58,579 nt of DNA from IMG/VR virus record IMGVR_UViG_3300045988_039851. One strand, given 5' to 3'. The stretch comes from a virus. Under the pieces are notes generated by a model. That model was not told where the DNA came from. It ran no database searches and worked only from the letters and a program-made list of their open reading frames with translations. Positions 12,646 through 53,840 of the stretch are shown in pieces (position 1 is the stretch's first letter; the number at the start of each line of letters is the position of its first letter). A program made the position numbers and the translations under genes.

Positions 12646-14144
12646 TTTTGCTCTCCTTCCTTTGCATTAGCCTGTTCTCCAACCATTTTGTCGTTGTCGG
12701 CAATATGGTCTGTGGGCTGTTTCTGCGGCTTCGGTGCTTTCCCATCCTCGCCCAGCTTGCCAGCGGCAATCAGGAACGGCTTGCTCATTTCGTAAGCAGC
12801 CTGCGGGTCGGGGAACAGGCCGGGTGTGGTGAATGCCAACTGTGGGTCAATAGACTGACCGAGCATCTGTGCGAAAATCTGAACCTTGCTTTGCTGGTTA
12901 TCGTACTGGCGGCGTGGAAGTTTGATGTTGATGTCACTTGCCATCAGCTTAGAACCAGCCGTATCACGCAGGATTTTTAGCATCACAGACAGGCTCTGGC
13001 GTTCAGCATACTTGAACATATTCTCGTACTGCTGCGCCCTCGCTTCGGTGTGATTCCAGCCGTTGCGGACGATAACTGCGCCCACGTTGTCAGACGTTGC
13101 GTTCTCGCTACCAGTGGCACTAGGCATGGCAGTCAGGCTGCGGTACACGTTCAACATGGAATCAAGCAAGGTCTGGCTCTGCTGCTGGTCAAGCTCGTTT
13201 GCAATCTGCGATACAGAAGCGGGCAGACCAGAAGTGGATTTCAGGCACATTGCGCCAAGCTCTTTTACTTGGTCGAGAGCATCCTTGTCCACAAGGCAGT
13301 TGGTGAACACCATGATGGACTGGATGAACTGCGCCACGCCGTCCAAACGGTTGCTTTCAAGGTCGTTGATGGCATCCAGCACAGGGATAGCAGGCTCAAA
13401 CAGACCCATGCGCTCCGGGTTCAGCTTGTATTCGACCATCGGCAACATTCCAAGAGAGTGATTCTCAGACTTTGTAACCTTGCCGTTGTCGATTTCAAAG
13501 TACTGGTTTGGCGTATACACGCAAATCAGGTCGTTCAAGTCATTCTGATAATTGCGTGGGATATGCAGCACGTTGGCGATGGGCTTGTGGCCGATGCCGG
13601 AGTTGTAAATCACATACGCCATGTCCGGGTCGGGAACATCCACCAGCAGGGGCGTTTCGTCCGGGTAGTTGCCGTTGTACCCCTTGTCAGGAAGGACAAT
13701 GCGGTATCCCTGTCCACACTCCAACATCCACTGCCAGAGCCGCCGATCGAGCGCGTCCTTGCCCTCATACTGCAAGGCGTTGGACAGGCGGGCAATTTCC
13801 TCACCGTCACCAGTTGCCGTTTCAGACCGCACATAAGAGCAAGGAGTACCGCTCATATAGCCCGTGTAGAAGCCCACGCACTCGTTGGCGTGGTTCTCTA
13901 CAATGCGATTGGTGATTTCAGCGTGGTACTCCTTCGTGCGGTGGAGGACAGGCTGACTACCCAAGTAGTAGTTGTGCAAAAAGCGAATCTCGTTCTTGTT
14001 CAGCAGATGAATAGGTTCTGCCTTGCCCATGACCACTTTTAGCACGTTCTCTCGGTTAATTTCCGTCTCCGGTGTTTCAATCGGTCTACGTCCGGTCAGC
14101 GGCTCATTCAAAAAGCCGCCAACAACCATCTGATACTCAGCCAT
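12642..14144 (-). CDS. Portal protein
   Basis: 500 aa in the terminase-to-scaffold interval. ATG at 14144 follows a GGAAAGGAGG RBS. Confidence 0.85.
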   Translation of the reverse strand: MAEYQMVVGGFLNEPLTGRRPIETPETEINRENVLKVVMGKAEPIHLLNKNEIRFLHNYYLGSQPVLHRTKEYHAEITNRIVENHANECVGFYTGYMSGTPCSYVRSETATGDGEEIARLSNALQYEGKDALDRRLWQWMLECGQGYRIVLPDKGYNGNYPDETPLLVDVPDPDMAYVIYNSGIGHKPIANVLHIPRNYQNDLNDLICVYTPNQYFEIDNGKVTKSENHSLGMLPMVEYKLNPERMGLFEPAIPVLDAINDLESNRLDGVAQFIQSIMVFTNCLVDKDALDQVKELGAMCLKSTSGLPASVSQIANELDQQQSQTLLDSMLNVYRSLTAMPSATGSENATSDNVGAVIVRNGWNHTEARAQQYENMFKYAERQSLSVMLKILRDTAGSKLMASDINIKLPRRQYDNQQSKVQIFAQMLGQSIDPQLAFTTPGLFPDPQAAYEMSKPFLIAAGKLGEDGKAPKPQKQPTDHIADNDKMVGEQANAKEGEQK

Positions 14145-14236
14145 GTGCCCCTCCTTTCCGGCAAAATAAAAAGCGCAGCAAGACAAACCTGTTAAGGTCT
14201 ATCTCACTGCGCTTACAACTGCGCTTCAAAAGCTAT

Positions 14237-14425
14237 TCAGTTTTTAAACTTTGGTACGGAGACCCATGTATCTTTTGGAAGGTTGGAATCTCCAATTGTA
14301 ATCCAATGGCAAAGAGGACACAGAAGGGAGAACTTGCCTTCCACTTCGCCAAGATAACGTCCGCAATCACACGGATTGCCGTTTGCGTCTTTTCGAGGAC
14401 GCTTGCATCTAACTTTCGCTACCAT
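14237..14425 (-). CDS. Small zinc-ribbon protein (Com-like arrangement)
   Basis: 62 aa with Cys at 7, 19, 21, 36 and 39 (CDCG and CPLC motifs). RBS AAAGGAG. Confidence 0.45.
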   Translation of the reverse strand: MVAKVRCKRPRKDANGNPCDCGRYLGEVEGKFSLLCPLCHWITIGDSNLPKDTWVSVPKFKN

Positions 14426-14592
14426 CTGTGCTCCTTTCGTTGAATTTCTGGAAACAGGCTGTTGAGCACAGACCTGTCAGAAGCTACTGGGAAACTGTTC
14501 GCACTTCCAGCCGTGCTATCTCCGCTCAGAGAAAGTCATTGCAGTCTTTACATTCAGTTGTCGGACAGATGTAAACGGGTTAACTGCAATTT

Positions 14593-14669
14593 TGGGTACG
14601 GGGGCTGGATTTGAACCAGCGTCCTCCAGCTTATGAGGCTGGCGAGCTACCGTGCTGCTCTATCCCGCC
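14593..14669 (-). tRNA. tRNA with CAU anticodon (Met / initiator-like, or Ile2 if lysidinylated), CCA encoded
   Basis: Hand-folded cloverleaf: D arm GAGC-AGCACGGTA-GCTC, anticodon arm CCAGC-CTCATAA-GCTGG, T arm GCTGG-TTCAAAT-CCAGC. The acceptor stem has 4 GC pairs, 1 GU pair and 2 mismatches. Confidence 0.75.
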
Positions 14670-14791
14670 ATAAATCCGGCTTGATTGGTTAACCGCTGCT
14701 CTTTGCAATGTCATGTCCAAACATTGCATCGAGAGCCGGGAATAGCGGTGGAGAATTCGGAGAATAAAAAGCCAAGCAAAGAAGATGGTTG

Positions 14792-14872
14792 TGCTGCGTA
14801 ACGGAATCGAACCGTTGCTTGCTAGCCGTGGGGGAGACAGGCCGGCATTCCCCAAACAATTGGAAACGCAAC
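14792..14872 (-). ncRNA. Degenerate tRNA-like element
   Basis: Perfect 7-bp acceptor (GTTGCGT/ACGCAGC) and T arm (AACGG-TTCGATT-CCGTT). The D loop is only 4 nt, and GGGGA..TCCCC closes a 13-nt loop in place of an anticodon arm. Confidence 0.4.
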
Positions 14873-14900
14873 ATATAAAGTCCGGTGAAGGCGAAAGAGT

Positions 14901-15010
14901 GAGAAAACCTCCACCGGTGAAAGGAGGAATATGCTTGTTGACACGCACGCGAGTAAAATGACAAAGCCCCGCGCACAAGCTATTCCTTTAAGGGAAGCTG
15001 CAGAACTTCC
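14901..15010 (-). ncRNA. Candidate small structured RNA upstream of the tRNAs
   Basis: Follows a promoter-like site. Has a long imperfect hairpin (AGGAATAGCTTGT..ACAAGCATATTCCT), then CCTCC..GGAGG and TTTTCTC. Confidence 0.3.
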
Positions 15011-15017
15011 TATGTAC

Positions 15018-15047
15018 ATTATAGGCCTTGTCAAGTGGTGAAATCAA
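15018..15047 (-). promoter_or_regulatory. Promoter-like site TTGATT-18-TATAAT facing the ncRNA/tRNA island
   Basis: Hexamers read on the minus strand, 40 nt downstream of the terL stop. Confidence 0.4.
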
Positions 15048-15086
15048 ATAAATAGACCCAGCGAACACAATATATTGTGTTTTTAA

Positions 15087-16754
15087 TCAAAATGGCCTCT
15101 TGACAGGCTCAATTTTGCTGATTCCGTTATACAATTCATCTGCAAGCTGTGCCAGACTGTCCGGTGCGTCATCGTGCGGAACTTTGCCAAGCTGCGTGAA
15201 CATCGTGACCTGTTCCATGAACGCCTTGTACTCTTTCGACTGGTGCTTCTCGTCAAGGAAATAGAACCGTTTGATGTCCGGCGCATACTGGATGATTCTT
15301 GACAGCTTGCTTTGCCCACTGGGCGCACGTTGGCTGCGGACAGAACAGTGATAGCCCTGTTGCCGGAGCTGGCTGTCTACCACATCACAGTATTCGTCAC
15401 CGCCGTTGTTGGCTTCGCCACGCACCACGTTGATTTTATGCTGAATGATTTTGCCCACAACTTCCGGTCTGGTCACGGTCTTATCGCCGTTATTGAACAC
15501 AAGGTCAGGGATGAACACAGCATCTCCGTACACATAAGCGATAGGACAGGCGGTGAAATCTCCGCCACCCCATGCAATATCCATGACCATGAGTTTGCGA
15601 TCAGGCTCACCATCAGGCAAAACGCCGTTGAAATACCGCAGTTCATCGGCAGGGAACAGCAGACCTTCACGCACATAGGGCTTGCCCATGTACTTTGCCC
15701 ACCATGTTGCATCATCAATGCTGGCTTTCATATCGGCATAGTAGGCATCATCAAAACCAACACCATAGTCATAATTAAAGTTACTGTGTCCGTTCTCATC
15801 CACCGCAGGAATCACCCGGAATCGGTACTTTGGGTTGTCTGCATACTGGTTCTGGATACGCCCCAGAGGGTCAAGCACGTTCCAGCGTGTACCGACCATC
15901 AGCTCTAATGCGCCTTGCTTTTTGCGGTCTTTCAACTGGTTCAGGTAGGCATCGTACTTGTTGTTCAGACGCTCAACGTTCAGGCTTTCCTCCAAGTCCT
16001 CGATCAGGTCATCACTGTACAGAACGCCGCCCTCGCCGATTTCAACAGCACCAGTCAGCGTACCGCCGATTGAGCGGCAAGTCAGGGTTGGGAAGCGCTT
16101 CTTTCGGTTCAGGTCAACGCTTTCGTCCTTTGCGCTTTTGTCCACAAGCTGAACGTCAGGGAAGATTTTACCCCAGTTGTAGGTTACAGGGTCGGTGATG
16201 ATGGACAGCACTTCGCCGTAGAAGCCGTTGGTCAGCTTGTCAGAGTGCCCGCTCATAACCGATGCAACGTCAGGGCGGTTGCCCATCAGCCATGTGATGA
16301 AAAATATACAGAGCGTACTCTTTCCAGTTCTCGGGGGCTGACTTACCCCAAGAAATTCTACACGATGGAAAAACAAGTCCTCTAGGTCACGAACCAACGT
16401 CAAAAGAACCTTTCTTCTCGGCTGATAGAACTTCTTCTCCGGCGCACGGTTCCATTCAAGGTAGATGCAATAGCTATCAAACACATCCCTTGCTTCAAAC
16501 AGGTAAGTTCGGCCGATAATGTCATAGGTCTTCGCTACGTCCTCGCCTGTTTTCATCTTGCCCATCATGGCTGCACAGACAGAGCGCAACTCACCAGAGT
16601 ACTTGTAGGCATCAAACCGCTTGTCTTGCGGCAGGGCATCTCTCAGGTTCACCACCGCCTGAAACCAGTCTTCATAGACCTGTGCTTCGGTCGGATTCTG
16701 CTTTGCATACGCTTTGATGCTGTCAATGATGGCGATACACTGCTTTGGCTGCAT
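15087..16754 (-). CDS. terL: Terminase large subunit
   Basis: 555 aa with Walker A-like GVSQPPRTGKST, Walker B-like VLYSDDLIED and a C-terminal nuclease-like region. Confidence 0.9.
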   Translation of the reverse strand: MQPKQCIAIIDSIKAYAKQNPTEAQVYEDWFQAVVNLRDALPQDKRFDAYKYSGELRSVCAAMMGKMKTGEDVAKTYDIIGRTYLFEARDVFDSYCIYLEWNRAPEKKFYQPRRKVLLTLVRDLEDLFFHRVEFLGVSQPPRTGKSTLCIFFITWLMGNRPDVASVMSGHSDKLTNGFYGEVLSIITDPVTYNWGKIFPDVQLVDKSAKDESVDLNRKKRFPTLTCRSIGGTLTGAVEIGEGGVLYSDDLIEDLEESLNVERLNNKYDAYLNQLKDRKKQGALELMVGTRWNVLDPLGRIQNQYADNPKYRFRVIPAVDENGHSNFNYDYGVGFDDAYYADMKASIDDATWWAKYMGKPYVREGLLFPADELRYFNGVLPDGEPDRKLMVMDIAWGGGDFTACPIAYVYGDAVFIPDLVFNNGDKTVTRPEVVGKIIQHKINVVRGEANNGGDEYCDVVDSQLRQQGYHCSVRSQRAPSGQSKLSRIIQYAPDIKRFYFLDEKHQSKEYKAFMEQVTMFTQLGKVPHDDAPDSLAQLADELYNGISKIEPVKRPF

Positions 16755-27114: not shown

Positions 27115-28338
27115 TTACATCCACACGCATTCTTTGAATTGCTGTGTTTCCATCTGGAACGTGATGTCAAGCGTCCCCACGTTTCCCTCTTTGTTCTTCT
27201 CAAGCGCAAAGTGATAATGCTCTTCTGGTCTCTTTTGCGTTTTTACTTTCTGCGCCAGCAGGATGATTGCATCTGCGTCCTGCTCGATTTGCCCGGATTC
27301 TCGCAAGTCTGCGGCAGTTGGTGGAATGCCCGCTCTTGCGGTCTCTCGATTGAGCTGTGCAAGTGCTACCACCAGCGTTCCTGTGGACTGTGCGAACTCA
27401 TGCAGTGCCATGCTGATCTCCGTGACGGCACTGTATCGGTCTTTCGCTCCGGCTTGATGGATAAGCTGCAAATAGTCGATGAACGCTACTTTGGCTTGCA
27501 TCCTGATGGACTGCGTTCTAATCCACCCTACGCTCTTACCAGCGGCAGAGCGGACGAACAGCGGATATTTTTTGATAGCTGCCAGCCTGTCAAGTTCTTC
27601 AATGCTGACGGTCTTGTTTTTGACCGTGTGCAGCGGTACGCCTAGCTGGTTTGCGATAATACGGGCATAGAGCGTATCTGGGTCTGTCTCTAGGCTGAAA
27701 TACGCCACTTTGCGTCCGTTCTTGGCTATTTCACAGGCAAGTTGCAGGGACAGAGCAGTCTTACCAGCAGACGGTCTGCCGCCGATCACAACGAAGTTTC
27801 CCGGCACAAGATGCAAGTTGTTATCCAGCACTCTAAGCCCTGTGCTGATATACTCCGGCTTATCATCCAGCTTGCGGATGTAGTTGTCTATGCCATCGCA
27901 CATCGGGATGAAATCGCTTCTCTCGTTGTGCAGGTTGATCGCTTCGCCTAGCTGCTCATAGATGCCTGTCAGGTCTGCATATCTGGTCGAACCATCAACG
28001 ATTTTGAATGCAATCTCTCTGGCTCTGGACAACGCTGCCTGTTCCTTGACGATTCCAGCCCACCCAAGCATCATGTCATGGGTGACGTTACGGATGAACT
28101 CTGCACCAAAGGCATCTAGACATTCACCCATTGCTTTCTTGCAGTTATCGTACCGTCCCATGACTTCTACCGGGTTCCATTTGTCGTTGTGTTCCCAATA
28201 ACCAAGAATGGCAGCGAATGTATCATGCAGTTCAGGGCAGAAATCGTCGATTTTAAGGTCTTGCAGCACATCAGCGTATTCCGAAAACGTGAGGACTGCT
28301 CCCAGCAGGATGTATTGGGTCTGATTTTCAATATTCAC
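27115..28338 (-). CDS. dnaB: Replicative DNA helicase (DnaB family)
   Basis: 407 aa with Walker [15 protein letters not shown] and a DnaB-type C-terminal domain (FIDYLQLI.., IILLAQ). Confidence 0.9.
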
Positions 28339-30113: not shown

Positions 30114-30561
30114 TGCAGACCGCCTTATAAAACACATCCCACGTCTCATAGTCACAGGAATCGCCAAAGTCGAACCCTGTCCGTTTTCGTTCTGCAATGT
30201 CGCGTTCAAAGCAGTCAAGCGTCTTGTCCGTTAGTTTCGGCAGGAGCGGTGTGATGTATCTGCATACAAGGCTAGGCATATATGAGCGTCTTCCAAAGCA
30301 GTAGCGGACAGCGCAGTTGCAGACCGCCCCGAAATCGTCATTGGTGGGGTCAATCAGATTTTTAGGTTCGTCATCTTGCAAGTCGGATATGGTGCAGTCA
30401 AGGACGGTTGCGATTCTGAAAAGCCACCTCTCTTTACATTTGCGTTTCCCGCACTCAATAGCCGATATGAAAGCGGCTGTTACACCGATTCTGTTCGCAA
30501 GGTCTTTCTGCTTGACGTGCAGTTCAAGCCTACGCTTCCTGATTTTCTCCCCTGCTGTCAT
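30070..30561 (-). CDS. XRE-family HTH protein with Cys-rich C-terminal domain
   Basis: N-terminus KIRKRRLELHVKQKDLANRIGVTAAFISAIECGKR. Confidence 0.7.
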   Translation of the reverse strand: MTAGEKIRKRRLELHVKQKDLANRIGVTAAFISAIECGKRKCKERWLFRIATVLDCTISDLQDDEPKNLIDPTNDDFGAVCNCAVRYCFGRRSYMPSLVCRYITPLLPKLTDKTLDCFERDIAERKRTGFDFGDSCDYETWDVFYKAVCNEIERRKGSGSQTD

Positions 30562-30563
30562 TT

Positions 30564-30788
30564 TTATACCCCAGCCTTGTACATCGTATATAAGATCACA
30601 AACCCAATCAAAAAAATAAAAATGTGGAGAATTGCATTCGCAAGAACCTTTATCTTTTCATCGGAAATTTCGTTCAACAATATATCCCATATCAAAATTT
30701 TTTCAATGAGATATGCCACCTCACATATAAATGTTCCAACCAGAAAAGAAGCTAAAACCACAATTAACGCATTTCCAAGATTACTCAT
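30564..30788 (-). CDS. Small membrane protein
   Basis: ATG at 30788 (ATGA overlap with the upstream stop, RBS GGAGAGG); two hydrophobic helices. Confidence 0.5.
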   Translation of the reverse strand: MSNLGNALIVVLASFLVGTFICEVAYLIEKILIWDILLNEISDEKIKVLANAILHIFIFLIGFVILYTMYKAGV

Positions 30789-39085: not shown

Positions 39086-39709
39086 TTAATTGAGGATTTC
39101 GTAGGTATAACGGCCTTTGCCGCTGTTGCGCCACTGACCGATGCCACGCAGAGCACCGTAGTCCAGCCACTCACGCACGACCTTCTCGTGAGAATCGTCC
39201 AGAAGAACGATTTCAAACTCGCAAGTCGAGCCAGCGGGAATCTGCTCGCTGTTGGCAAGGCTTACACGTTCACCCTGTGCAGTCTGGGCGCGGAGAGGGC
39301 GCTGGCACTCGGTAATCTCACCGTTCACATGAATGGGAATCATGCGGGGCTGAACGAAAATCAGACCATCAATGACCTTCTTGTAGGCCGTCAACTTGCC
39401 GCTTTCGTTCACGGCCTTCTTCTTGCCAGTTTCGGTTTTGCCACCGATACGACCCAGCATACCGCAAGAATCCTTGAAGAAGCCCTTGATTTGGTAGTCA
39501 TACAGGATGGGTTTGCCGTTCTCGTTGCGAGGGAACACGGTCATGCCCTTATCTGCCACAGCATCAGCGCCAAGAGCAGCAACTTCGTCCTCGATAGTGC
39601 TTGCGTCCGGGGACTTGCTGGCAATGAACTCTCGCGCAATGTTCTGGTTGCTAGGCCAAGTGCCGAGAACCGCTTCGGTGAATGTGATTCTGACTTTGAT
39701 TTTTTTCAT
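39086..39709 (-). CDS. Hypothetical protein with RAMP-like motifs
   Basis: 207 aa with GKPILYDYQIKGFFKD and a C-terminal Gly-rich GIGQWRNSGKGRY. Confidence 0.6.
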   Translation of the reverse strand: MKKIKVRITFTEAVLGTWPSNQNIAREFIASKSPDASTIEDEVAALGADAVADKGMTVFPRNENGKPILYDYQIKGFFKDSCGMLGRIGGKTETGKKKAVNESGKLTAYKKVIDGLIFVQPRMIPIHVNGEITECQRPLRAQTAQGERVSLANSEQIPAGSTCEFEIVLLDDSHEKVVREWLDYGALRGIGQWRNSGKGRYTYEILN

Positions 39710-39899
39710 TTTTGCTCACTCTTTCTTTCTCGATATGTTCCAGTCTTAAAGATTCACGCTTTTGCCAGCGCTTCTTCCACGGACTGCTTTTGTTGAAGTT
39801 GCTTATTGCTTTCTTCATCGTTTGCCATCCTCCGCTTGCGTTGGATGTGTTCCAGCCGCTCTTTCTCCCGGATGTGCCAGTGGATTTCACGTTGGCCAT
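39651..39899 (-). CDS. Very basic Trp-containing ORF (doubtful)
   Basis: 82 aa. It starts 5 nt after the upstream stop without a clear RBS and overlaps the next gene by 59 nt. Confidence 0.3.
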   Translation of the reverse strand: MANVKSTGTSGRKSGWNTSNASGGWQTMKKAISNFNKSSPWKKRWQKRESLRLEHIEKERVSKNEKNQSQNHIHRSGSRHLA

Positions 39900-44147: not shown

Positions 44148-45245
44148 ATGCCAGAATTGACAGGAAACAATCTTGTCGAAAAGAGCAAGGCATTGGTTTG
44201 GGCGAAGTTTACGGACTACACAGCAGGCGAGCTTCGGCTGCTTGAGGTCTATCTGAGCCGTATCAATCCGAGAGACCCAGAAAGCTCTAACGTGTCGTTT
44301 ACGCTGGCTGAATATTGCAAGCTGCTGGATTTGAAGCTCAATTCAAAGAACTTGAAGTCGCAAGTTAAGCACTTTTTGGGCAACGTGGTTTCAGTACCAC
44401 TGAATACAGATGGAACGGAATATGTGATGTATCCACTGTTCACAAAGGCAGAGGTTAAGTTCAATCGGGAATCCTTGTCCTATGATGTTTCAATTAACTG
44501 CAATCCTGACTTACGGCCTGTGTTCTTCGATATTGCAAGAAGCGGCTACGTCAAATATCGCCTGCGCTATACGATTGGGATGAAACAGCAAGCATCTATT
44601 CTGATGTACAGCATGATTCGAGATTGGATGAATCGCTCTCTAACATCGAACAAGATTGGTTTGAAGCAGCTGCGTGACCACTTGGGGGCAAACGATGCAA
44701 GTTATGACGATTTCCGGGCTTTGCGCCGCAGAGTTCTTGAACCAGCAGTGGAAGAGATCAGCAATGTTTCAGACATTGTCGTTGACTTTGAAAAGATTTG
44801 CACAGGGCGAAAGGTAGTAGCAGTTGAGTTTCGATTCGGGTACAAATCCAAGCAGCCCGTCATAGATGCCGATTCTAGCGAGGTTGATTGTGAGACGGCT
44901 AATTCCAAGCCGGAAATCAAAAAAGCCGCCAGAAAACCCTGCACAAGCGGATATGAGGATTTCGACTGGTCTGTGTGTGACGAGCTAGAAAAGCAAGACT
45001 GCATTGACGTGGCGAAGGTAGTTGAGAAGTGGATGAAGAAAGAGCATCCTGAAATCAAGCTGCCGAGACGCAGAGAAGCGGTTTATGAGACGGTGAAAGC
45101 CGCATACAATGACATCTTGTCTTTGGACAGGTCTCCGTTCCCTGACAGACCCGTTGGCTATCTGATTAGAAGCGTGGACAAGGCAGGTATCGTAGACAGG
45201 TATATGCCAGCGTTCTATTCCATTGAAGCACTTAGCAGCAAATAA
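44148..45245 (+). CDS. repB: Plasmid replication initiator (Rep_3/RepB-like)
   Basis: 365 aa with N-terminus NNLVEKSKALVWAKFTDYTAGELRLLEVYLSRINPRDP. It immediately follows its iterons. Confidence 0.75.
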   Translation: MPELTGNNLVEKSKALVWAKFTDYTAGELRLLEVYLSRINPRDPESSNVSFTLAEYCKLLDLKLNSKNLKSQVKHFLGNVVSVPLNTDGTEYVMYPLFTKAEVKFNRESLSYDVSINCNPDLRPVFFDIARSGYVKYRLRYTIGMKQQASILMYSMIRDWMNRSLTSNKIGLKQLRDHLGANDASYDDFRALRRRVLEPAVEEISNVSDIVVDFEKICTGRKVVAVEFRFGYKSKQPVIDADSSEVDCETANSKPEIKKAARKPCTSGYEDFDWSVCDELEKQDCIDVAKVVEKWMKKEHPEIKLPRRREAVYETVKAAYNDILSLDRSPFPDRPVGYLIRSVDKAGIVDRYMPAFYSIEALSSK

Positions 45246-45260
45246 AGAAAGGATGATAAA

Positions 45261-45512
45261 ATGGCAAAAGTTCAAAGTTCCGTTTTGTACAGAGAAGTGG
45301 CGAAATTGCGAAACGACTTCGATTGTAACAGAGTTGAGTTTTTCACCGTTGGGGACGGAATTGATACGCCAATTCATGTAATGGTCGGTTCTCGCGGGCA
45401 CGGCACTGTAGAACCAGACGAAGCGATTGAGGAAGGAAAGGCGCTAATTGAAGCTGGTAAGGCAGCAAAAAAATTTAAGTACAATGGTTATTTTGTAATG
45501 TGGGGAGAATAA
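45261..45512 (+). CDS. Hypothetical protein
   Basis: 83-aa ORF between rep and parA. Confidence 0.55.
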   Translation: MAKVQSSVLYREVAKLRNDFDCNRVEFFTVGDGIDTPIHVMVGSRGHGTVEPDEAIEEGKALIEAGKAAKKFKYNGYFVMWGE

Positions 45513-45514
45513 AA

Positions 45515-46285
45515 ATGGCAAAAATTATAGCTGTCGCCAACCAGAAAGGCGGCGCAGGAAAGACCACCACAAGCACCTGTCTGGCTGGTGCGTTACAGTT
45601 GCTTGGCAAGAAAGTCCTGCTGGTGGACTGCGATGCCCAGTGCAACGCAACGGATACTTACGGCGCACAGACAGAGGACGTATGTACCCTGTTTGACGTG
45701 ATGACCCGGCAAGGCACGGCCGAAGAAGGAATCCAGCACTGTGAAGCTGGTGACATTCTGCCATCCGACAGCGCATTGAAGGACATTGACGAGCAGCTTG
45801 TCCGGGACATTGGCAAGAACTTCCGGCTGCGAGAAGCCCTTGAAAGCGTATCCGAGCAGTACGATTATATTGTGCTGGACACTCCCCCGCAGCTTGGTCT
45901 TGCGCTTGTGAACGCACTGATCGCCGCCAACAGCATTATCGTTCCCATCACAGCAGACCGATACGCACTGGCTGGTTTGAGCCAGCTTTCGCAGACCATC
46001 GGCGATGTTCGCAGATATTTCAATCCGACTTTGAAGATTGAAGGATTGCTTCTGAACCAGTACAAGAGCCGTGAGAACCTGTCCAAAGAGGTTGTGGAGC
46101 AGCTTCCTGTGATTGCACAGAGTATGGGAACAACCCTGCTGGACGTGAAGATTAGACCGTCTATGGGCGTTCGCAAGGCGCAGGCAGAGCGGCACAGCCT
46201 GTTTAGCGGCGACACGGCAAAGAGTACCAGCGCAGAGGATTTCAAAGAGCTGGCAAAGAAGATTGTGGAAGGAGAAGAAAAATGA
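45515..46285 (+). CDS. parA: ParA/Soj-type partition ATPase
   Basis: MAKIIAVANQKGGAGKTTTS deviant Walker A; ATG follows GGGGAG. Confidence 0.9.
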   Translation: MAKIIAVANQKGGAGKTTTSTCLAGALQLLGKKVLLVDCDAQCNATDTYGAQTEDVCTLFDVMTRQGTAEEGIQHCEAGDILPSDSALKDIDEQLVRDIGKNFRLREALESVSEQYDYIVLDTPPQLGLALVNALIAANSIIVPITADRYALAGLSQLSQTIGDVRRYFNPTLKIEGLLLNQYKSRENLSKEVVEQLPVIAQSMGTTLLDVKIRPSMGVRKAQAERHSLFSGDTAKSTSAEDFKELAKKIVEGEEK

Positions 46286-51132: not shown

Positions 51133-51651
51133 TTATTCTCCTTTCTTTGCGGTGGCAGCGGGCTTCGAAAAGCTCTTCTGCCACTTTTCCAGTTCATCCA
51201 GCCGGTGGACGAGGGCGTTGTACTGCTCAATAGGCACATACTGCTGTGTCGGTGTAGCGGTCTGCTGTGCCTGTTGTGCTTGCATCTGCCTCCACGCTTC
51301 CGGGCTGTAAAACTCTAACACGTCAGATTCACAAGTGTTTGGGTTCAGACGTTTGCAGTAGATGACACCACTACGCAAATCCGGGCAATACGTCCATCTT
51401 CCATACAGATCAGATGGAATTGCCAAAAACTCCTCTCTGCTGGAAACAGGTCTGCCAAGCAACCAACCGCCGTCCTGTGCCGACTGCTGAACAGGCTGCT
51501 GCCCATTCATCGGCTGCGGACGCTGCGGTTGTGCCTGTTGCATCTGCGTGTTGGGCAGGGGAGTGGCAAGCCCAACTGTGCCCATGCCACCGTAAGGATT
51601 GACAGGCTGCTGTGGAACGTAGGGCGCTCCGGGTGCCGGATAATAGCTCAT
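51133..51651 (-). CDS. Cargo-island protein 1: Pro/Gln-rich N-terminus, Cys-containing C-terminal domain
   Basis: ATG at 51651 follows AAGGAGGG. Sequence begins MSYYPAPGAPYVPQQPVNPYGG. Confidence 0.65.
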   Translation of the reverse strand: MSYYPAPGAPYVPQQPVNPYGGMGTVGLATPLPNTQMQQAQPQRPQPMNGQQPVQQSAQDGGWLLGRPVSSREEFLAIPSDLYGRWTYCPDLRSGVIYCKRLNPNTCESDVLEFYSPEAWRQMQAQQAQQTATPTQQYVPIEQYNALVHRLDELEKWQKSFSKPAATAKKGE

Positions 51652-51724
51652 AAAACATCCCTCCTTGTGCATCCAGTGTACTGCATCGGCAAAAAGCAAG
51701 AGACAACAAAGGCACAACGAAGGA

Positions 51725-51768
51725 CAAAAAAGAAAAGCGCCCACACGGAAAAATCCGCATGAGCGCTT
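51725..51768 (-). terminator. Leader terminator/attenuator upstream of the cargo island
   Basis: Minus strand: AAGCGC..GCGCTT stem with an inner GCGG/CCGT helix, then TTTTCTTTTTT. It ends about 75 nt before the ATG at 51651. Confidence 0.55.
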
Positions 51769-51854
51769 AACTGTTAAGGGCCTCACATTGGAAGCGAAAA
51801 TAAAATATCACATTTTGACTTGCAAGACAAGAATTTCGGCAAAACTAGTGCGAA

Positions 51855-51930
51855 TAAAACAAAAATCCCCCACTTTGCCTACAACGTACCCCGCGTGGAA
51901 CGCAGGGCTTCGACAAAGCAGGGGATTTTA
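51855..51930 (-). terminator. Long rho-independent terminator after the sigma-like gene
   Basis: Minus strand: AAAATCCCC..GGGGGATTTTTGTTTT with an inner CCCTGCG/CGCGGGG helix. Confidence 0.65.
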
Positions 51931-52670: not shown

Positions 52671-53043
52671 GATTGGTAACTCCTTTCAAAAGATAATTGT
52701 CGATGCTAGCCTTGCTTTTCTGCATCCCTTCGTGATTGTCCCCGGAGAGCTGAGCGTCCAGCAGATTTCGCACACCATCAAGGGCCAAGCAAATCTCTTC
52801 GTCGATCGCGTCGAAGCGGGTGAGGTCGCGTTTTAAGGCCGCTGCGTGCTGAGACGAAATGCTTTCGACTGCGCCCAGCCGTTGCTCGATAGCGTCAAGC
52901 CGCTGGTTTTGCGCGGCGTCGGGTGCCTGCGCCTTTTTGATATACTTGTGGATGATGTCCAGCACCTTGTCCAGCGTGACCGCTCCTGCACACACGCTGC
53001 CAACAACCCCCAGCACCCACAAAAGAGCCTGCTCTTTAGTCAT
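52654..53043 (-). CDS. Membrane-anchored lysis-associated protein (holin/spanin-like position)
   Basis: 129 aa with an N-terminal TM segment LLWVLGVVGSVCAGAV, then a coiled coil. Overlaps the endolysin stop by 4 nt. Confidence 0.45.
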   Translation of the reverse strand: MTKEQALLWVLGVVGSVCAGAVTLDKVLDIIHKYIKKAQAPDAAQNQRLDAIEQRLGAVESISSQHAAALKRDLTRFDAIDEEICLALDGVRNLLDAQLSGDNHEGMQKSKASIDNYLLKGVTNHGSNQ

Positions 53044-53840
53044 GCGCCCTCCCGGAGACGGGTCAGACCCTTCTTTCTGATGATACGGGGGTAGTTGAGG
53101 GTGGTCACGTTGAGGTCTACGTTGCCGGAGATGCCCGGCACGCTGCCCTTGCTGGTGTGCTGGTGCGCATTGTACTTAAAGCTCACTTTGGGGGCCTTTC
53201 CGGTGTAATCGGCCAGCCAGACGTCGTAAGGCTTGAGCGCTGCGCCGCCCATATAAAGGCGGGAGTTGGCAAAACTGGTATAGGTGTAGAGCTGAGCGTA
53301 AAAGCCCATCGCCTCGATACGAGCCAGTGCATAAGCCGTCAGGTCGGTGAGGGCCTGCTTGCCCAGTTGCTTGAACTTATTGTCCTCTACGTCTACAGCC
53401 ACCGGAAGGGTCAGCTCTTTCCCCCGCAGAGCTTCGGACAGAAGGGCCAGCTCCTTATCTGCACCGGTGCGGCTGATGGCGTAGGTGTAGTAGTAGACGC
53501 CCACGTCCAGCCCAGCAGCCCGGGCGTTGCGGTAGTTATCCTCAAAGGTTGGGTCGATATACAGGCCGTCTGCCCGCTTGGAGAACTTTTTGTTGGTGGA
53601 TACCGTCTTGAGCATGACGCCCTTGTAGCCAGCCGCTTTGACCTTGCGCCAGCCGTCGAGGGTGATTTTGCCCTGATACCGGCTCACGTCGATGTACCGG
53701 TAGGGCGGATCGCCCTCCCAGCCGGGAGGAGCGGAGGCTTTGGTGTCCACGGTGGACGCCTTAGGAGAGGCATCTGCGGAGGGATGGGAAGGGCCAAAAA
53801 TGCCCGCGAGAAGGTTGCTCAAAAACTCAAGAAAGCTCAT
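53040..53840 (-). CDS. Endolysin, GH25 muramidase-like
   Basis: Motifs YIDVSRYQGKITLDGWRKVKAAGYKGVMLK and AAGLDVGVYYYTYA. Confidence 0.8.
   Translation of the reverse strand: MSFLEFLSNLLAGIFGPSHPSADASPKASTVDTKASAPPGWEGDPPYRYIDVSRYQGKITLDGWRKVKAAGYKGVMLKTVSTNKKFSKRADGLYIDPTFEDNYRNARAAGLDVGVYYYTYAISRTGADKELALLSEALRGKELTLPVAVDVEDNKFKQLGKQALTDLTAYALARIEAMGFYAQLYTYTSFANSRLYMGGAALKPYDVWLADYTGKAPKVSFKYNAHQHTSKGSVPGISGNVDLNVTTLNYPRIIRKKGLTRLREGA

Follow-up and report, generated by a model that had tools for sequence, protein, structure and literature searches.

What occupies the gap between the terminase gene terL and the portal gene of a gut phage, a gap that gene callers on public assemblies leave empty? 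The case considered here is the virus record IMGVR_UViG_3300045988_039851, whose full 58,579 nt are called the window below. The gap, referred to as the island, lies on the minus strand from 15086 to 14426, next to the terL stop codon (TGA, 15089-15087). A first-pass annotation, made from the letters alone, had described it as a densely structured RNA island free of open reading frames (ORFs), and had placed its limits at 14426 and 15086. These limits turn out to be too narrow: the unit runs on through a leader, a small ORF and a terminator to ~14171. Read from the sequence, it is a self-contained accessory cassette (~15047-14171, -), which begins with a predicted sigma-70-like promoter and closes with a strong intrinsic terminator. 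As to what the cassette does, on balance we lean towards an autonomous accessory unit whose transcript would be cut by RNase P and RNase Z at tRNA-shaped modules. The annotation's own fallback, a novel array of processed non-coding RNAs, comes close to this account, in which the processing itself is what we infer.

How widespread is the cassette, and how constant? With TerL as the query, at least 593 IMG/VR contigs of 55-60 kb were recovered, mostly from the human gut and with 98-100% amino-acid identity; an island pattern search gave more than 119 human-gut metagenome contigs, and in GenBank the island is also present in two unannotated faecal contigs. No isolate genome with the island was found, and the closest cultured relative is Clostridium phage Maintenon (52% TerL identity). 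All of the ~280 examined copies that span the terL-portal junction have the 0.9-kb cassette, and all of these loci (L numbers below) come from one lineage, a human-gut phage-plasmid. The order of the parts is fixed: promoter-M1-M2-CUCCUUUC-M2b-M3-M4-M5 tRNA slot-M6-M7-small ORF-terminator. Order and approximate module length are constant save for rare variants, namely a deletion in L154 and a 19-nt duplication in L041. When the window is compared with ten relatives, identity within the island modules ranges from 100% down to 25-50%, where the third codon positions of terL are 77-93% identical. Cassettes are swapped between otherwise near-identical phages, and module order and folds are retained. 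The variation is wholesale cassette replacement, not gradual drift.

The next question is what kind of object is being exchanged: an RNA, a protein gene or a DNA site? The annotation had recommended a covariance analysis, which was run on the relatives and proved positive. True pairing was compared with slid controls, i.e., pair counts after sliding the partners, and paired cells amount to 94.8% for M3 (34-50% when slid), 99.5% for M4 (26-44%) and 99.8% for M7 (21-39%), so the dense structure described at the outset is real and lies far above the controls. Counts of G·U against A·C, made in three modules, stand at 83:15, 47:2 (M4) and 44:2; because an A·C on one strand is a G·U on the other, the selected structures are those of minus-strand RNA.

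This asymmetry bears directly on the idea of a DNA-level element (a packaging site, an attachment site or an operator cluster) or of a small protein gene on the plus strand. Such readings can point to the neighboring terL, to a strong ribosome-binding site (GAAAGGAGG) ahead of a 36-aa ORF at 14931-15041 (+), and to the perfect 18-nt palindrome AACACAATATATTGTGTT (15064-15081), read directly just past the terL stop, where it had been reported. They are hardly credible, since G·U is tolerated on the minus strand only, which speaks for RNA and not DNA; the plus-strand frame behind its GGAGG shifts or is lost among close relatives; and several alleles do without the palindrome. The latter occurs once in the window, is replaced by unrelated sequence in the allele types of L005, L016 and L007, and lies, by sequence comparison, outside the conserved core; it could serve as a 3' hairpin of the terL message or as an operator. 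The description of the island as free of ORFs holds in the sense that no ORF is conserved, and fails in the mechanical sense, for the longest frames reach 115 aa. On both strands, near-identical relatives disagree in the length and frame of such ORFs, and those on the sense strand, of up to 115 aa, were rejected as genes for want of conservation.

At the heart of the argument stands M3, an 81-nt tRNA-shaped RNA (14792-14872, -) delimited with a covariance model, R1, and with pair counts; it bears out what had been called a degenerate tRNA-like element. Its acceptor stem has 7 bp (GUUGCGU/ACGCAGC) followed by A73, with no encoded CCA, and acceptor and discriminator are invariant save for one position, which departs in two distinct sequences. 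The D arm has a 4-bp stem and GG in its loop, and the T arm is canonical, with a 5-bp stem and a UUCGAUU/UUCAAAC loop. The "anticodon" arm, by contrast, covaries over an 8-bp stem and ends in a ~12-nt loop that is mostly C-rich (CUCCCCC). In other words, M3 has the acceptor, D and T arms of a canonical tRNA, and departs from it in the 5-bp stem, the 7-nt loop and the conserved anticodon. Nine of its pairs are altered on both sides. R1 recovers M3 in 82/82 island loci searched, at 62-118 bits, and the M3 sequence pattern also matches most of ~200 further loci. ARAGORN at default settings and the Rfam tRNA model both miss it; relaxed ARAGORN calls it Asp, Thr, Gln, Ile or Gly, varying by allele. 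Sites complementary to the M3 loop show no enrichment. Behind M3 follows a variable, pyrimidine-rich spacer, UUCUCC...CCUCCA (14750-14791, -), with 38-93% identity between alleles; a conserved fold was looked for in it and none was seen.

Is M3 simply a dead tRNA? Phage tRNA clusters often hold pseudo-tRNAs, and the island could be taken for an ordinary tRNA gene amid a decaying tRNA array, with M3 a pseudogene and the rest neutral spacer. M3 does clearly descend from a duplicate of the type-B tRNA that occupies the neighboring slot in other alleles: the two acceptors differ by one pair, and R1 cross-matches that tRNA weakly (~35 bits). Decay is, however, disfavored, and we regard it as improbable. 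Compensation keeps every arm of M3 even though alleles are 57-64% identical to the M3 of the window, M3 is present across the loci counted above, and M4, M2b and M7, none of them tRNA-like, covary as well; M7 moreover evolves slower than synonymous sites.

The neighboring slot, M5, holds in the window a tRNA(CAU) (14593-14669, -), here called type A, and its prediction was confirmed by ARAGORN and by the Rfam tRNA model (49.3 bits, cut-off 29). It is a canonical cloverleaf whose anticodon loop has 7 nt; its CCA is encoded, and G1 and A72 are mismatched. ARAGORN calls it tRNA-Met (CAU), and it may be either an elongator Met tRNA or an Ile2-type tRNA. Across loci the slot accommodates at least seven different cassettes. 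Among 181 classified slots, 124 hold the canonical CAU type B, 22 type C, some alleles of which have UAU instead of CAU, and 8 the type A of the window. In others the anticodon loop has been replaced, by a 3-nt loop (9 slots), a GAAA tetraloop (7), an extended arm (2) or UACG (1), so that loop-replaced slots make up ~10% of loci (e.g., L024:6086-6163, L005:6080-6158, L056:6081-6174, and L160 near 365-460). The slot tRNA would usually decode AUG or AUA, the latter accounting for 14 of 376 Ile codons in the phage, and decoding appears not to be the conserved requirement: because tetraloops replace anticodon loops in one and the same slot, selection keeps the tRNA shape, not the decoding. M3 and M5 have in common an intact acceptor/T-arm minihelix with U at -1 and G at +1.

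M6 (14517-14590, -), defined from minimum free energy (MFE) folds and per-pair counts, is exchanged jointly with the tRNA cassette. It consists of a nested hairpin (14590-14538), found as it had been described, in which AUUGCAGU.../...ACUGCAAU enclose UUUACAU/AUGUAAA, and of a small hairpin of 6-7 bp. Both covary, with many G·U pairs: pair 14529:14522, for example, has 25 rows with CG and 24 with UA, and compensatory variants include UCGCAGUC/GACUGUGA and ACCGCAGCC/GGCUGCGG.

A natural deletion is found in L154 (~11.2-11.9 kb, minus strand of the locus), from which M4 and the tRNA are gone. At its junction the 3' acceptor strand of M3 is joined directly to the ...CACCAAAA of a tRNA 3' end. The loss of exactly the segment between two acceptor 3' strands fits the reading in which tRNA-shaped modules are the sites of processing.

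Between M3 and the tRNA the annotation had noted a structured spacer, and this is borne out by M4, a 75-nt pseudoknotted RNA (14675-14749, -) established by pair counts. Stem a joins ACCGCU (14749-14744) to AGCGGU (14697-14692); stem b, which crosses it, joins CCCGGCU (14740-14734) to AGCCGGA (14681-14675; AGCCGGR among alleles); and a hairpin, c/d (14733-14699), with a G-A/A-A internal loop, lies between the stems. Seven pairs are altered on both sides, and pair 23:93 of stem b occurs as CG, UA and AU with zero mismatches in 276 loci. M4 has no match in Rfam, and no paralogous copy of it or of M7 exists elsewhere in the window.

Could M4 be a self-cleaving ribozyme, derived from the theta ribozymes that resemble that of hepatitis delta virus (HDV), which processes the precursor by itself? 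In gut phages more than 70% of theta ribozymes adjoin tRNA-Met, suppressor tRNA or tRNA-Leu (PMC10879173), and M4 has the nested double-pseudoknot order P1-P2-P3-P1'-(P4)-P2'. Set beside the supplementary sequences of the same paper (PMC10879173), strand order and element sizes are theta-like: P1 of 6 nt, J1/2 of 3 nt, P2 of 7 nt, P3 of 3 bp, then P1', a junction of ~10 nt and P2'. The details nonetheless speak for the most part against it, and we consider a working ribozyme of this kind very unlikely. M4 lies upstream of the tRNA and not at its 3' end; with respect to M3, it starts 42 nt beyond, where 5 nt or less from a tRNA 3' end is required. Its first nucleotide is A or C, not G1, and a hairpin of ~30 nt stands in for L3/P1.1. 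The sole candidate for the catalytic cytosine (column 87 of alignment A4) is C, U or G among alleles, the junction of the L005 allele is without any C, no HDV-family model in Rfam matches, and a descriptor scan gave no canonical fold in the island. A second candidate for a theta/HDV-like fold, in the M6 region, with a P1-like stem of 7-9 bp, GG after it and CC in the loop, was rejected, as the L046, L049 and L066 alleles have lost the strand that would form P2.

What lies at the 5' end of the presumed transcript? The promoter-like site reported earlier, TTGATT-18-TATAAT (15018-15047, -), is indeed there. It matches the sigma-70 consensus and is the sole promoter-like site that a scan of 14000-15400 returned. 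In divergent alleles, with ~40-50% identity in this part, its place is taken by TTGATT-17-TACAAT or by TTGACT-18-TATAAT with TGG upstream, and the distance to M1 is constant, so the arrangement is conserved; promoter activity is predicted from these matches. M1 is a 7-bp hairpin, GGAAGUU/AGCUUCC (14993-15010, -), that folds in all allele types, including L007, where a compensatory change makes it GGAGU/ACUCC. The long hairpin that had been seen after the promoter is M2 (14925-14987, -), interrupted and closed by an AU-rich apical loop, UUUUGUCAUUUU(U)AC. Hairpin and loop appear in the MFE structure of seven of the nine alleles folded (the window, L022, L008, L036, L066, L016 and L024); for L005 the outer stem GGUAUU/AAUACC is visible by eye in the alignment only, and L007 has the long hairpin with a different loop. 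The loop sequence is otherwise kept in every type, and the inner stem varies in a compensatory manner (GCGAG/CUCGC, GCAAG/CUUGC, AUGAG/CUCAU).

Between M2 and M2b, every allele type has a CU-rich tract (14919-14926, -), which is CUCCUUUC in nearly all of the 68 distinct versions and CUUCUUUC or CCUCUUUU in a few. It is complementary to the ribosome-binding site of the small ORF, GAAAGGAG. It also matches the anti-Shine-Dalgarno end of Bacillota 16S rRNA; its function is putative. M2b (14882-14917, -) is a hairpin of 10-11 bp, CCGGUGGAGG/CCUUCACCGG, with a pyrimidine-rich loop, that ends ~9 nt before M3. It is folded by all 68 distinct sequences, with a mean MFE of -17.7 against -6.3 for shuffles, and its arms exist in at least ten different sequences, every one of them complementary. 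This hairpin also settles the fate of the terminator-like end, CCTCC/GGAGG plus U, that had been proposed for this segment: the letters are present in the window, where the covarying 10-bp arms of M2b, CCGGTGGAGG/CCTTCACCGG, contain the GGAGG, and the proposed pairing is not conserved, because in GAAGG variants the upstream CCUCC is unaltered and a downstream CCUUC pairs perfectly. Covariation thus contradicts it. Nor does the terminator scan list this putative terminator (14924-14900), and the L005, L007, L024 and L036 types are without the hairpin.

The last RNA module, M7 (14426-14516, -; pair counts), is a near-invariant leader with two pseudoknots. P1 (14516-14513 with 14504-14501) and P2 (14511-14507 with 14490-14486) form an H-type pseudoknot; P3 is a hairpin (14477-14468 with 14462-14454); and P4 joins 14485-14483, just 3' of P2, to bases 14467-14465 in the P3 loop. 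The 3' part is a single-stranded tail that leads to the Shine-Dalgarno sequence GAAAGGAG at 14438-14431. Among 279 loci, a pair in P1 is AU in 146 and GC in 10, one in P4 AU in 148 and GC in 13 with no mismatch, and one in P2 UA in 136 and CG in 22, to which pair 23:48 adds GU, AU and GC; in P1 and P2, too, mismatches are rare or absent. An alternative pairing, CUGGAA/UUCCAG, was rejected, as it is not compensated when P2 changes. Between the window and the ten relatives M7 is 82-98% identical, against the 77-93% of terL third codon positions, and it equals or exceeds these synonymous sites in most comparisons, which points to purifying selection. It has no match in Rfam and none outside the phage group among the matches listed (more than 120 viral and at least 119 metagenome).

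M7 precedes a small ORF (14237-14425, -) that encodes 62 aa in the window and 60-62 aa across loci, with four or five cysteines in the pattern C-x12-C-x-C ... C-x2-C. Translations from 75 loci fall into two divergent allele families that have the motif RYLGEV(E/D)G in common. To judge by the cysteines the product is probably a zinc ribbon. It has no match in Pfam, PHROG or the PDB, and its homologues are confined to this phage group. A translational activator of the Mu Com type was entertained and rejected: BLASTP gave no alignment to the Com sequence, and only the cysteine pattern is comparable. Downstream lies the intrinsic terminator found by the terminator scan (14171-14214, -), a 20-bp stem followed by UUUUAUUUU and ~90% conserved in relatives. 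Beyond it comes the start of the portal gene, which is the ATG at 14144 (-) behind the ribosome-binding site GGAAAGGAGGGG, and not the TTG 14186 of the ORF list. Because so strong a terminator directly precedes it, portal expression must need read-through or antitermination.

Is the whole island, then, a leader? It may be argued that the island, and above all M7, is a long 5' untranslated region that controls the small ORF and perhaps portal read-through, and we regard such a cis-regulatory role as possible, at a low level of confidence. Its variants, a riboswitch, a protein-binding operator or an attenuator in which the tRNA is merely embedded, are entertained just as tentatively. In their favor, M7 lies directly against the Shine-Dalgarno sequence, changes less than synonymous sites do, and stands in identical form before the two very different ORF alleles. 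Furthermore, GCUUCU (14484-14479) can pair with the Shine-Dalgarno region in competition with P4, and RNAalifold predicts this closing stem; a strong terminator, moreover, separates the small ORF from portal. What a leader leaves unexplained is M1-M4, which lie 170-580 nt upstream, beyond a tRNA that is due for excision, and whose exchange is not tied to that of M7; nor is there a match to any riboswitch or leader family. For M7 itself, the idea is compatible with the explanation that we prefer.

One further reading was suggested by the annotation itself, namely a kinship with the large ornate RNAs GOLLD and ROOL. These are phage-borne, several hundred nt long and said to adjoin tRNA genes, and the island, with its ~660 nt, its phage location and its tRNA, fits the description of a single 600-nt fold built around a tRNA. 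At the Rfam gathering score, however, the whole window yields only the tRNA and a DUF3800-VIII RNA, with no GOLLD or ROOL; at E<=10 nothing credible besides the tRNA appears over 14100-15400, and at E<=1 six divergent alleles give only tRNA matches inside the island. As far as covariance models can tell, this excludes the kinship. In addition, the helices that covariation supports all stay within a single module, recombination moves the modules separately, and one natural variant lacks M4 and the tRNA, so that a GOLLD/ROOL-like RNA is very improbable and largely refuted. Models for Y RNA-like RNA (YrlA), T-box, transfer-messenger RNA (tmRNA) and riboswitches had no match except for a trace of tmRNA, a 17-nt T-arm match at E=1.5, and among 30 ORFs scanned there is no Ro/TROVE, CCA-adding or RNA-ligase domain. 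Fragments of the island may already be listed in catalogues of candidate structured RNAs from IMG/VR (PMC10690425). Two side observations come from the same searches: the DUF3800-VIII motif (51864-51927, -) is full-length, with 82 bits against a cut-off of 40, and the ORF downstream of it (51133-51786, -) has no Pfam match at E<=0.001; and a weak ctRNA_pT181 match (E=0.63) lies in L024, ~3.7 kb upstream of the island.

How would the cassette work under the processing account? A single precursor would arise at the cassette's own promoter, and probably also from transcription that continues past terL. Punctuation would be provided by the tRNA-shaped M3 and M5, with their 5' ends cleaved by RNase P and their 3' ends trimmed by RNase Z or by exonucleases. 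Released in this way would be a 5' RNA of ~140 nt (M1-M2-M2b) with exposed CU-rich tracts that resemble an anti-Shine-Dalgarno sequence, the 81-nt tRNA mimic, an RNA of ~120 nt that carries M4, and the tRNA. Left over would be an mRNA that starts with the hairpin M6 and whose translation M7 would govern. That the released RNAs control translation by pairing with Shine-Dalgarno regions is a guess, and so is the notion of M7 as the binding site of a protein or ligand.

A bolder version of this account is conceivable, and we offer it as speculation. In it, the anticodon-less tRNA mimics are scaffolds for processing and stability of new functional RNAs, M4 or M7 or both represent a new class of regulator that senses a ligand or a protein, or of ribozyme, and the CU-rich 5' RNA together with the M3 loop reprograms translation via Shine-Dalgarno sequences of host or phage. 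The idea of a new regulator or ribozyme arises because M7 is more constant than synonymous sites and the topology of M4 is HDV-like.

Several points weigh against the processing account and its details. That RNase P and RNase Z would cleave M3 is a supposition based on its shape, and the promoter is a match to the consensus. As for targets in trans, a duplex scan of the 5' RNA against 55 start regions did no better than shuffles. The complement of the M2 loop, AAAAUGACAAAA, has 22 sites in the window at two mismatches or fewer, where 11 are expected; one of these is 14955-14966 (+), and those at gene starts include 30553-30564, 39701-39712 and 45258-45269. This excess is probably for the most part a resemblance to the generic A-rich context of starts. 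With regard to structure, the support for stem b of M4 comes from a single varying pair, as does that for P1 and for P4 of M7. Each module has only some five to seven allele types, and all sequences belong to one phage lineage, so the number of independent compensatory events is limited; common descent, or the recombination of a handful of alleles, accounts for the sharing of many of the changes. Finally, ~85% of slots hold an ordinary tRNA(CAU), and in these selection may act mainly on plain tRNA supply.

Where does such a cassette sit, and in what kind of genome? The proteins encoded in the window include a replication initiator of the Rep3 type, ParA, DnaB and a GH25 lysin (44148-46285, +; 27115-28338, -; 53040-53840, -), as well as antirepressors, and the genetic code is the standard one; a scan of 30 ORFs turned up no integrase. 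From its gene content it looks like a complete phage-plasmid of ~58.6 kb with a Gram-positive host, probably in the Bacillota. A 115-kb contig, IMGVR_UViG_3300045988_050806 (loci L120 and L136), has the M7 motif twice and may be a concatemer or an assembly duplicate of a 57-kb genome.

The nearest other phages, at 51-62% TerL identity, are missing the island: a prophage in a Bacillota metagenome-assembled genome (62%), Maintenon from [Clostridium] innocuum (52%) and a faecal contig (51%). Two of these three have a different small insert at the terL-portal junction, and in the faecal contig the portal ORF follows ~140 nt after terL. The Bacillota prophage has there a reverse-strand ORF of 220 aa (L083:5736-6398), and Maintenon an ORF of 46 aa (L085:5433-5573); some island-bearing relatives have an extra 121-aa gene between small ORF and portal (L406:4033-4398). 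The terL-portal junction is a hot spot for accessory inserts. Maintenon also has genes for tRNA-Trp and tRNA-Gln between terS and terL (L085, 2795-2943).

Why should a cassette left blank by automatic annotation matter? The lineage that carries it is among the commoner ones in human-gut assemblies, and it offers at least three RNA motifs without a described family: the tRNA mimic with its extended arm, the M4 pseudoknot and the M7 double pseudoknot. It is also a natural case in which selection keeps the shape of a tRNA and not its decoding, and thus has a bearing on how "phage tRNA genes" are read, and on whether host tRNA-processing enzymes mature other RNAs as well. If its function is limited to tRNA supply plus a leader, it is a well-documented curiosity.

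The island can be set beside several known systems. The theta ribozymes (PMC10879173) are alike in that they occur in gut Caudoviricetes, next to a tRNA(CAU), with the order P1-P2-P3-P1'-P2' and similar stem lengths; M4 differs in being 5' of the tRNA and in having neither G1, L3/P1.1 nor a conserved catalytic cytosine. GOLLD and ROOL differ in that the island is modular and recombining, not one co-folded RNA, and has no match to their models.

A functional lead comes from the C-rich small RNAs of Bacillota, of the RsaE/RoxS type, which pair with Shine-Dalgarno sequences. The island likewise presents unpaired C/U tracts in loops and linkers (CUCCUUUC, CUCUUUC, CUCCCCC and CCUCCA); it differs in having no Rfam match and in target predictions that are no better than chance, and a lead is all that this likeness provides.

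Two eukaryotic examples, the TMERs of the murine herpesvirus MHV68, in which a tRNA-like part is joined to precursor-microRNA hairpins, and MALAT1 with its mascRNA, demonstrate that non-decoding tRNA shapes recruit RNase P and RNase Z. Here, too, tRNA shapes not used for decoding would release neighboring functional RNAs; the flanking RNAs of the island are pseudoknots and long hairpins, however, and not microRNA precursors.

With regard to its architecture, the cassette recalls the phage "morons", units of promoter, gene and terminator inserted in late operons. It has a predicted promoter and a terminator of its own, stands between conserved structural genes, is absent from relatives, and uses a junction that in other phages holds other inserts; judged by sequence, it is an autonomous cassette of the moron type, the activity of its promoter being a prediction. 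The difference lies in the cargo, which is mostly RNA rather than protein.

A further parallel is the tRNA cluster of phage T4, in which tRNAs and the stable "species 1 and 2" RNAs are co-transcribed and cut by host RNase P and 3'-processing enzymes. The island, too, would be a phage transcription unit in which tRNA is combined with further small structured RNAs that are stable, and would be cut at tRNA-shaped ends. There is no sequence kinship, and the island has one tRNA, an anticodon-less mimic and two pseudoknotted modules, ends in a protein gene with its own terminator, and sits inside the structural operon. With these differences in mind, the island belongs with the phage tRNA-linked stable-RNA operons.

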